From Octopus vulgaris (Eukaryota), in the NCBI GenBank assembly GCA_951406725.2, contig OX597814.1:187736001-187800000 (forward strand): a DNA stretch of 64,000 nucleotides, read 5' to 3'. Of the stretch, positions 14,108 to 56,077 are shown one piece after another; the first letter of the stretch is position 1; every line of letters begins with the position of its first letter. The notes under the pieces were generated by a model. That model was not told where the DNA came from. It ran no database searches and saw only the letters and a list, made by a program, of their open reading frames with translations. A program made the position numbers and the translations under genes.

Positions 14108-14180
14108 GCCCGGCTAGCTCAGTCGGTAGAGCACGAGACTCTTAATCTTGGAGTCATGGGTTCAAGCCCCACATTGGGCA
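14108..14180 (+). tRNA. tRNA-Lys(CTT) copy, probably a pseudogene
   Basis: GCCCGGCTAGCTCAGTCGGTAGAGCACGAGACTCTTAATCTTGGAGTCATGGGTTCAAGCCCCACATTGGGCA matches metazoan tRNA-Lys(CTT) with several mostly CpG-type changes; fused directly to U6 sequence. Confidence 0.9.
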
Positions 14181-14191
14181 CACCATATTTT

Positions 14192-27871: not shown

Positions 27872-28014
27872 ATGGCTACCGAATAATTGTCATATATATT
27901 TACAGATAAATTCCTCTATTTACATAATATGAAGGTCTCTTTCATTCTTTTCTTGTCTTACCATTTTTATCAAGCAGTGTCGGCTATAACCTAGTCACCC
28001 GTATAGTCAACCAG

Positions 28015-29529
28015 GTGATACACGAAGGAGTCATTCCCAATGACTGGTGTAGCAGCGTACTAGTCAACTGCTACAAAGGTAAAGGTGATGCCCTAGATAC
28101 AAATAATTACAGAGGTATCAAGCTGTTGGATCAGGTAATGAAGGTTACGGAGAGGGTCATAGCCCAACTAATTAGAGAGAGAGTTAGTTTAGATGAGATG
28201 CAGTTTGGGTTTGTGCCAGGGAAAAGCACCACTGATGCTATATTCCTGGTAAGGCAGCTGCAGGAGAAATACCTAGCCAAAGATAAGCCCCTGTACCTGG
28301 CTTTCGTTGACATGGAGAAAGCCTTTGATAGGGTCCCCCGATCCCTCATCTGGTGGTCAATGAGGAAACTAGGGATAGATGAATGGCTGGTGAGGGCTGT
28401 GCAGGCCATGTACAGAGATGCCGTAAGCAAGGTTAGGGTTGGCAACATGTACACAGAAGAATTCAAAGTAGAGGTTGGGGTCCACCAGGGTTCAGTACTC
28501 AGCCCCCTCCTATTTATCATAGTCCTCCAGGCAATAACAGAGGAATTCAAGACAGGTTGCCCCTGGGAGCTCCTCTATGCTGACGACCTCGCTCTAATTG
28601 CTGAGTCACTATCAGAACTGGAGGAGGAGTTCCAGGTGTGGAAGGAGGGTTTAGAATCGAGGGGCCTTAGAGTCAACCTAGCTAAAACCAAAGTACTAAT
28701 AAGTAGAAAGGTAGGCAATCCACAAATGTCCTCAGGAAGATGGCTCTGCTCGATCTGTAGAAAAGGTGTAGGTAGAAACTCTATAAGATGTACCCAGTGT
28801 AAGCTATGGACACATAAGAGGTGCAGCAATGTCAAAGGTAGGCTAACTGGGAAGATAGTCTTTATATGTGGCAGATGCTCGGGAGCATTGACCTCCGAAA
28901 ATCTGCAGAAAACAACTTCCGTCACTTTCCAGGGGGAAAAATTAGAAGTAGTTGATAGCTTCCGTTATCTAGGTGACCAAGTCAGTAGTGGGGGTGGGTG
29001 CGCTGAGAGTGTAACTGCTAGAATAAGAATAGCCTGGGCAAAGTTTAGGGAGCTCTTACCTCTGCTGGTGACTAAAGGCCTCTCGCTCAGAGTAAAGGGC
29101 AGACTGTATGATGCATGTGTTCGAACTGCCATGCTACATGGCAGTGAAACATGGGCCGTGACTGCTGAGGACATGCGTAAGCTCATGAGGAATGAAGCCA
29201 GTATGCTCCGATGGATGTGTAATGTCAGTGTACTTACTCGACAGAGTGTTAGTTCCCTAAGAGAAATGTTGTACCTAAGAAGCATCAGTTGTTGCGTGCA
29301 AGAGAGACGATTGCGATGGTATGGTCATGTGGCGAGAATGGATGAAGATAGGTGTGTGAGAAAGTGCCAATCCCTAGCAGTTGAAGGAACCCGTGGAAGA
29401 GGTAGACCCAGGAAAACCTGGGACGAGGTGGTGAAGCACGACCTTCGAACATTAGGTCTCACCATGGAAATGACTAGAGACCGAGACCTATGGAAGTATG
29501 CTGTGTGTGAGAAGACCCGGCAAGACTAG
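28015..29529 (+). CDS. RTE ORF2 C-terminal part: reverse transcriptase with inserted PHD-type zinc finger (5'-truncated, no endonuclease domain)
   Basis: NYRGIKLL, QFGF, AFVDMEKAFDRV, GVHQGSVLSP, LLYADD, FRYLG; RTE C-terminal RRLRWYGHV and RGRGRPRKTW. Confidence 0.9.
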   Translation: MIHEGVIPNDWCSSVLVNCYKGKGDALDTNNYRGIKLLDQVMKVTERVIAQLIRERVSLDEMQFGFVPGKSTTDAIFLVRQLQEKYLAKDKPLYLAFVDMEKAFDRVPRSLIWWSMRKLGIDEWLVRAVQAMYRDAVSKVRVGNMYTEEFKVEVGVHQGSVLSPLLFIIVLQAITEEFKTGCPWELLYADDLALIAESLSELEEEFQVWKEGLESRGLRVNLAKTKVLISRKVGNPQMSSGRWLCSICRKGVGRNSIRCTQCKLWTHKRCSNVKGRLTGKIVFICGRCSGALTSENLQKTTSVTFQGEKLEVVDSFRYLGDQVSSGGGCAESVTARIRIAWAKFRELLPLLVTKGLSLRVKGRLYDACVRTAMLHGSETWAVTAEDMRKLMRNEASMLRWMCNVSVLTRQSVSSLREMLYLRSISCCVQERRLRWYGHVARMDEDRCVRKCQSLAVEGTRGRGRPRKTWDEVVKHDLRTLGLTMEMTRDRDLWKYAVCEKTRQD

Positions 29530-55195: not shown

Positions 55196-55372
55196 AGACA
55201 AAACTGCAAAAAAGAAAAGAAAAAAAAAGCAAACAAACAAAAACACACCGCTTTTACTCCATAATATTTTACAGAAAAAGAAAGGATTGCCTGAATGGAA
55301 TTAAGAGAAATTATTGCCAGGAATGTAGCACAAATGAATCTAAAGGTCCAGCTGTTTATATATTAGTAATGC

Positions 55373-55423
55373 GTCCCCAAAGCCCATCCCCTCCTCACTG
55401 TGGTGGGGACGCTGGCAACGGGT
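55373..55423 (+). ncRNA. Candidate minimal HDV-like ribozyme
   Basis: P1 GTCCCCA/TGGGGAC; P2 GCCCAT/ACGGGT (one mismatch); L3-like TCCTCAC; P3 CC/GG; J4/2-like GGCAA; no P4. Confidence 0.55.
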
Positions 55424-55748
55424 AGTGTCAGAGCTATGCCGTCGGGAACTTCGGTTCCTGGTAAGTCCACCCAAGGCGGATTGGTCTGACACCGAGTGGT
55501 ATTAGGGCCGCAACCCGGCAGACAGGGCTCTGGTGAAAATCCTCAGAGTGTCTGTTTCGGCAACCGGCGGCTCCTCGGTCGTTCTGTCCCTGCGTCTGCG
55601 GACAATCAGCAGCAAACAGGATGTCTCTACATGCGAGATTGTTGGGGACCGCTTGTAAAATCCACATATTCCCATGAAACTTCTTCCATGGTAGAAGAAG
55701 CCGACTTAACCCGCCCAGGGTGAATGTCGCCACGAGTACAAGTACAAG
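55373..55748 (+). mobile_element. Non-autonomous retroposon with (AGTACA)n tail and candidate 5' HDV-like ribozyme
   Basis: GC-rich island; TSD TATATTAGTAATGC (55359-55372) / TATATTGGTAATGC (55749-55762); no tRNA-like head seen. Confidence 0.8.
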
Positions 55749-56077
55749 TATATTGGTAATGCAACATAGCTAAATATAGAAATTAAAGTATTAAATAGCC
55801 GGGGATGGTTGAGACAAGAATTGTTTCATGATGATCAGCTGCCATTTGGGAATAGCAATGATGTTATTTTAGTTATTTATTGAAACGGTTGTTATACGGA
55901 AGATTGTTTTGATATTTATTTTACATTCTTACTTTAGAACATATTCATTATTATTTGTATTATTTCCTTAATGCTTTATTTTAATTTATGCAATTAAAAA
56001 GTGGTTAAAATGCAAAATAGAAATGTTGAAGTATTGTCATGTAGTGGTTTATTCCAAAAAAAAAAAAAAAAACATGT

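Follow-up and report, generated by a model that had tools for sequence, protein, structure and literature searches.

A short RTE derivative in Octopus vulgaris with a predicted full-size HDV-like ribozyme fold at its 5' end

The element, its insertion site and its family

The window analyzed here is a stretch of 64,000 nucleotides from Octopus vulgaris (contig OX597814.1, positions 187,736,001 to 187,800,000 of the forward strand). Listed in Table 1 are the features of a GC-rich insert that lies between two direct repeats, with 376 bp between them. The repeats match at 13 of 14 positions, and the target site duplication (TSD) and insert described in the initial annotation are borne out by the window sequence. 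The mismatch at position 55365 is probably a later mutation, because a contig from public run X18 (record 9), which covers window positions 55249-55418, carries a G at 55365 and gives a TSD of 14/14. The hexamer tail is likewise real, its CAAGTA units being the AGTACA units of that annotation in another phase. As also stated there, a tRNA head is absent, which speaks against a tRNA-derived SINE; the head is the 5' end of a LINE itself. The sole tRNA called in the window is a tRNA-Lys(CTT) located by ARAGORN at 14108-14181 (+).

Short, gene-less copies of this RTE number in the hundreds in the genome (2.8 Gb in 227 contigs). An exact 27-mer from the head of the element has 201 genome matches and an exact 21-mer from its tail has 499, the reversed control giving none in either case. 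Of 1624 candidates, 40 were scored, and the 39 other full-length copies are 93-95% identical to the window element. Against the majority sequence of 30 short copies, the window copy shows 4.1% divergence (median 3.0%). Clear TSDs, found in 38 of 53 family copies, are mostly 8-15 bp in length at dispersed sites and indicate that the element was amplified as a unit. One size class of 361-377 bp holds 33 of the 53 copies, in a sample biased to the query. Head fragments are inverted or duplicated at the 5' junctions of several copies (L078:1445-1499 (oriented), the L091 head, L022, L025, L035 and L040), which suggests template jumps between element RNAs.

Table 1. Positions of the element and of its predicted parts in the window.
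Feature	Positions	Strand	Detail or basis
Left TSD	55359..55372	+	Last two bases (GC) double as the first two of the element (microhomology)
Right TSD	55749..55762	+	Direct-repeat comparison
Whole element, internally deleted non-autonomous RTE derivative	55371..55750	+	Family comparison
Predicted full-size HDV-like ribozyme fold	55371..55533	+	Predicted cleavage 5' of G55371; family comparison
Predicted P1, 5' strand (G1 = 55371)	55371..55378	+	Pairs with 55405-55412; 8 bp, G1-C37
Predicted P2, 5' strand	55384..55391	+	CCCC 55388-91 with 55524-27; CCA 55384-86 with 55531-33
Predicted P3, UCC/GGU (two C-G pairs and U·U)	55392..55404	+	Matches the drz-agam-1 model line
Predicted L3, 7 nt (U20 C21 A22 .. 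G25)	55395-55401	+	Family comparison
Predicted P1, 3' strand, then U55413 and G55414 pairing with L3 A22 and C21 (P1.1)	55405..55414	+	
Predicted J1.1/4 (G-C-A-A)	55415..55418	+	C55416 = HDV C41 equivalent
Predicted P4 (55419-23/55513-17) closing an 89-nt branched insert	55419..55517	+	8-bp stem and UUCG hairpin inside
Predicted J4/2: G55518, candidate catalytic C55519, A-G-A (C-N-R-A)	55518..55523	+	
Predicted P2, 3' strand	55524..55533	+	A55524 in the window copy breaks the pair beside P3
Parent 5' UTR part	55371-55690	+	Alignment to L091-L093
Remainder of parent 5' UTR, stopping a few bases short of the likely start codon	55534..55690	+	Parent alignment
Deletion junction	about 55689-55690	+	Parent alignment
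Parent LINE 3' end: last ten codons, stop 55721-23, short 3' UTR, CAAGTA-type tail	55689..55750	+	

Parent LINE and two-part origin

It is nearly certain that the element consists of the 5' UTR and the 3' end of an RTE LINE, brought together by an internal deletion. Element positions 1-320 and 319-380 align with the two ends of the 3.0-3.4 kb copies L091-L093, with identities of 89-94% in the 5' part and 89-93% in the 3' part, the latter being the last 60 bases of the LINE. Longer copies of the element retain the end of an RT-type open reading frame, and it was this piece that led to 5'-truncated LINE ends with the same tail; the long parents were located by pairing two sets of match coordinates. 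L091-L093 begin with the head of the element and carry coding sequence for an endonuclease (APE) and a reverse transcriptase (RVT_1, E 7e-35), which in the parent make up a single open reading frame, followed by a very short 3' UTR with short repeats. The APE domain was identified by eye and from the Pfam domains of homologues, the 167-residue piece itself having no Pfam match. Among named proteins, the best-matching relatives are RT proteins from flatworms and molluscs that also carry endonuclease domains. Assignment to the RTE clade rests on structure and database matches, and both the structure and the tail agree with the clade as summarized in PMC1291365.

The two-part origin and the parent LINE are thus shown: both ends of the element are common to an autonomous RTE LINE and the middle is deleted. 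This upholds the earlier proposal of a non-autonomous family mobilized by an RTE-type LINE, and the autonomous element with the same two ends, which the initial annotation had said should be sought, has been found in L091-L093, all of them broken. Indeed, every parent copy examined is broken: seven LINE loci of family A have at most 183-415 residues between stops, as against 1035 in an intact relative, and for this reason the family is likely now inactive.

Bipartite RTE derivatives are a described class, of which RTE-N2_Lch, RTE1-N1_LA, RTESINE1/2, WALLSI3 and Bov-A are members (PMC5786205). Like them, the octopus element combines an RTE 5' UTR and 3' end with a microsatellite tail and has no RNA-derived head. 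It represents a new family in this genome, and the covered part of PMC5786205, which cites predicted ribozymes for some RTEs, gives no fold for the bipartite elements.

The 5' boundary and the predicted fold

A protein search yielded three sister RTE families in the genome, namely B, C and the distant D; across families, protein identity to P0002 is about 33% versus 70%. The heads of 53 copies of family A, to which the window element belongs, were compared with those of 25, 5 and 16 copies of families B, C and D, respectively, with L273 omitted from the family C majority. For family A, 70 loci were examined, 53 of them with an intact head anchor. Left out of the head set were L038 and L056 (duplicates), eight headless loci and 17 loci lacking the anchor.

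The family begins at G55371. The initial annotation had placed the 5' end at G55373 and had it coincide with the cleavage site, a boundary at which only nine of the 38 clear TSDs end. A further six stop at the base just ahead of G55371, and in many a few untemplated bases intervene. Position 55371 is a G in 42 and position 55372 a C in 44 of the 53 anchored copies; because both are conserved, the GC counted in the left TSD is element sequence that matches the target. In one large public run, 17 contigs with loose ends leave the element before 55370. At 55370 itself, T is found in 32 of the 53 family A copies (31 of 52 in a second count), with no conservation further out; in family D, 10 of 16 copies likewise have a T directly before the 5' end. 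This T may reflect untemplated addition of A to the cDNA or a target preference. The HDV ribozyme prefers U at position -1.

In all four families, the conserved 5' end lies at, or at most one base from, the partner of the last base of the P1 3' strand, given P1 lengths of 8, 7, 6-7 and 8 nucleotides. For family C, a forced seven-pair P1 gives two mismatches, and a shift of one base gives six of six pairs with one extra A.

On the basis of the family comparison, the first 163 bases of the element very probably fold as a full-size HDV-like ribozyme. In the models for all four families, P1, P1.1, P2, P3 and P4 form a nested double pseudoknot in the correct order. The register was fixed by alignment of an outside contig, L142, to the Rfam model drz-agam-1; this set P3 as UCC/GGU, L3 at 7 nt with U20 and G25, and the place of a UG after P1. 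The invariant UG pairs with C21 and A22 of L3 to form P1.1, as A-U in 16/16 and C-G in 15/16 alignment rows, and U55413 is present in 53/53 family copies. Within the 7-nt L3 (7-8 nt in HDV-like ribozymes), U20 is kept in 52/53 and G25 in 51/53 copies, and both in 4/4 families. With these partners, 92.5% of 530 cells are paired, as opposed to 36-52% for slid partners. The P4 that had been recorded as absent is a 5-bp stem already present in the plain minimum free energy fold of the window copy, and it changes on both strands between families A and B; family D alters both strands of proximal P2.

The G-C-N-R-A motif, followed by the P2 3' strand, is found in 4/4 families, with the C first in J4/2. 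In family D the order is J1.1/4 (G-C-A-A), a short P4 with a 5-nt loop, G-C-U-A-A and P2, which reads like HDV itself. Note that the family D heads (L240-L255, e.g. L241:1501-1588) are compact, at 85 nt. In families A-C, the closing motif lies 89 nt further on than in D. The 89-nt insert is a block common to many RTE 5' UTRs and is homologous to the 5' UTR block of the bipartite RTE elements of PMC5786205. C55519, which is a C in 50/53 copies and deleted in the other three, is likely the catalytic base of the modeled fold, equivalent to C75. Positioning of J4/2 directly after the first hairpin, at C55443, was considered and dropped, as the UUCG hairpin there covaries.

The initial annotation was thus right as to kind, an HDV-like fold at the 5' end, but not as to register, which it gave as a minimal ribozyme with G1 at 55373, no P4 and C55416 as the catalytic base. 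That layout is very unlikely. P4-less HDV-like ribozymes do exist in R2 elements and in abalone (PMC3774820), the head of L142 is also of this form, and a loose HDV descriptor accepts the register; the same descriptor, however, equally takes A, G or U as the catalytic base and 142/150 shuffles, and was rejected as having no discrimination. The family 5' end is two bases upstream of G55373, J4/2 and P2 do not come within a few bases of P1.1, and families B and C have no C at the position of C55416. When the proposed stems were checked against the collected copies, P2 of the minimal layout was paired in 58% of cells, with one pair broken in 16/16 rows. Its 7-bp P1 is real but is part of the longer 8-bp helix. 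In HDV numbering (PMC1874588), C55416 is the C41 equivalent, and a C55416U mutant, which had been suggested as a control, would consequently not probe the active site.

A third register would take U55413 as U37, pairing with a G at flank position 55370, with a GG P1.1, a 10-nt L3 and cleavage only behind G. U55413 is indeed invariant, GG follows in families A and D, and P1 strands supplied by the flank are known for R2 and Perere-3 (PMC3774820, PMC8501958). Against this, 55370 is G in 7/40 copies, compared with a 20% background, and T in 24/40; moreover, cleavage before a flanking G would leave a G on every daughter, and a 9-bp P1 would be needed along with the 10-nt loop, whereas it is the 7-nt L3 that aligns with drz-agam-1. 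This register is highly improbable.

Returning to the full-size fold, six pairs are changed on both sides across the families, including four of the eight P1 pairs in alignment A2, a count that is not above that of shuffles (124/500) for what are only four related families. MAFFT misplaces the 3' half of family D and, in A2, sets B and C off by one column, such that some pairs are undercounted in the pairing tallies and in RNAalifold. RNAalifold favors pairing the 3' strand of P2 differently, in a way that is incompatible with P1, and the folding z-scores are unremarkable (-0.9, -1.2, +1.2 and +0.4).

The descriptor and Infernal-type check proposed in the initial annotation came back negative: Rfam, searched at E up to 10, reports no ribozyme for either the window stretch or the heads of the four families, and a canonical HDV descriptor, with constraints partly checked against PMC3774820 and PMC10879173, matches 0 of the 53, 25, 5 and 16 heads of families A, B, C and D. 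A core-only descriptor was discarded, with many chance matches in 81 outside loci. A revised descriptor, written post hoc after the families had been seen, requires a C at the catalytic place and matches 14/53, 5/25 and 2/5 heads of families A, B and C and none with A, G or U there; on shuffles it matches 2/400, 0/400 and 0/200, respectively, and 3/1400 overall. It fails on the window copy, misses the outside contigs L144 and L217, and gives U decoys in 8/16 family D heads and 15 other matches in 299 kb.

The Rfam result, which includes no twister match, bears as well on the idea that the head is a truncated twister ribozyme. Perere-3, of the RTE clade and with a GTAA tail, begins with twister variants (PMC8501958), and a review refers to RTEs with a truncated twister at the 5' end (PMC7761336). 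The octopus element starts without the AA left by twister cleavage, and its invariant positions are explained by the HDV layout, such that a twister seems highly implausible here. A permuted twister register was also considered and dropped.

Two lesions are evident in the window copy, namely a U at L3 position 24 (55399), where the family has C, and an A at 55524 in P2, where G is found in 40/53 and A in 6/53 copies. Because of these changes, the window copy is likely a decayed daughter that would cleave poorly.

Core variation, proposed mechanism and relatives

The comparison shows where the family begins and that the stems are conserved among the four RTE families. With the HDV-headed RTEs and drz-agam-1 (RF01787) the heads share the double pseudoknot, a P1 at the 5' end, the 7-nt L3 with U20 and G25, the C-N-R-A motif and the location at the head of an RTE. 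They differ in having A22-U38 in P1.1, a U·U in the 3-bp P3, an 8-bp P1 and an 89-nt branched P4 insert, and in going undetected by Rfam. P1 is typically 6-7 bp in HDV-like ribozymes (PMC3774820), and P3 is very sensitive to mutation in HDV and CPEB3 (PMC9901934). The first pair is G1-C37 in family A and C1-G37 in families B, C and D and in L144 and L217. Family B has no C24.

This atypical core, with a pyrimidine at position 1 in three of the four families where HDV favors G1·U37 (PMC1874588), lends some weight to the main rival, in which the fold is real and yields no useful cleavage. What would preserve it is a role at the 5' end in stability, protein binding or translation, and an internal promoter would set the 5' end. 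The 77-bp head of L1Tc reportedly acts as a promoter (PMC4758252), and for some of the predicted R2 folds no cleavage was seen in vitro (PMC3774820). A purely structural role, however, would not need the G-C-N-R-A motif and U20/G25, which are kept in four families, L144 and L142, and the 5' end moves with the first base of P1 from family to family. We regard a non-cleaving fold as unlikely, though a serious contender.

The account that we favor, with some reservation, is that the RTE 5' UTR and 3' end were joined by deletion and that the 163-base HDV-like head, with C55519 as the catalytic base, cut the source RNA before G55371. A source copy would have been read through from a host promoter, and self-cleavage just before G55371 would have set the 5' end of its RNA. 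The parent APE-RT protein, acting in trans, would then have bound the common 3' end and inserted the RNA by target-primed reverse transcription, the 5' junction being joined through the GC microhomology. Independent deletions (classes of about 370, 395, 400 and 500 bp) may each have spread, because both ends would suffice in cis. Cleavage is the weak step of this model. Short deletion derivatives are present in family B (L256-L285) too: for 15/25 heads, the tail of that family is reached within some 300-440 bases.

There are published accounts both of HDV-like ribozymes carried by RTE, R2 and L1Tc elements and of deletion derivatives headed by a ribozyme (PMC6765202, PMC3774820, PMC3414825, PMC4908430), and a 2011 report of HDV-like RTE ribozymes is cited in PMC5786205, PMC6765202 and PMC3774820. 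The R2 SIDEs of Drosophila (PMC3414825) are likewise short and internally deleted, with an HDV-like head and a 3' end recognized by the parent protein, and NARTc/RIME of trypanosomes (cited in PMC5786205 and PMC6765202) combine a ribozyme head with a parent-recognized 3' end in short deleted elements. In contrast to these, the parent here is an APE-type RTE rather than the rDNA-specific R2 or Ingi/L1Tc, the insertions are dispersed and the ribozyme is a predicted one. Perere-3/SR3 of Schistosoma mansoni (PMC8501958, PMC1291365) share the RTE clade, a similar tetramer tail and a ribozyme adjoining the TSD; theirs is a twister with a P1 strand from the TSD, whereas the head described here is of the HDV class. 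The type of element is thus ordinary and of a kind already known. The variant of the ribozyme core was not found in the literature searched, which held no account of a ribozyme for this family or of an A22-U38/C1-G37 subclass; the RTE-ribozyme papers of 2011 were outside the scope of that search.

A covariance model built from the four families has three matches in the 81 outside loci (299 kb), all on the sense strand and upstream of RTE open reading frames. L144 and L217 show P1, P3, a 7-nt L3, C-N-A-A and a P2 of 6-7 bp, together with C1-G37 and G22-C38. The RTE relative L142 aligns to drz-agam-1 at the same place with 31.6 bits, below the cut-off of 37. L142 is a metagenome contig, and its positions 113-180, some 700 bases ahead of an RTE open reading frame, are predicted to form a canonical HDV-like ribozyme of the P4-less type, with G1·U and C-C-A-A. 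As read by eye from the alignment in the PMC5786205 supplement, the elephant RTE1-N1_LA shows the same layout. A search of viral contigs gave no match, and one of other genome contigs gave a single distant locus.

The four octopus families, L144 and L217, and RTE1-N1_LA by eye, raise the tentative possibility that RTE/BovB-type LINEs and their short derivatives, across a broad lineage, start with an active and unrecognized subclass of HDV-like ribozyme, having an invertible C1-G37 pair, A22-U38 or G22-C38 in P1.1 and the conserved 5' UTR block as its P4 insert. If this were so, none of its members would have been picked up by descriptors that require G1 and C22-G38. Core variants occur naturally among the four families (A-U in P1.1, U·U in P3, G1-C or C1-G, and a P4 either short or of 89 nt), with which the "rules" for HDV can be tested. 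In addition, they point to a conserved block of the RTE 5' UTR, whose function has been unexplained, as one component of a ribozyme fold. Should the heads cleave, HDV-like ribozymes are undercounted in animal genomes, and the sharpness of the 5' ends of RTE derivatives is simply explained.

Elsewhere in the window, at 27928-29529 (+), there is an unrelated RTE-type RT with a 533-codon open frame and a different tail. It is likely kin of a young, abundant family with intact 1061-residue open reading frames. Inspection by eye of 18 stretches upstream of an abundant young RTE family (32-34% identity) revealed no head of the kind described above. Directly upstream of the 1061-residue frames, loci L222-L238 have in common a polypyrimidine-CAG-GT motif that looks like a splice acceptor.
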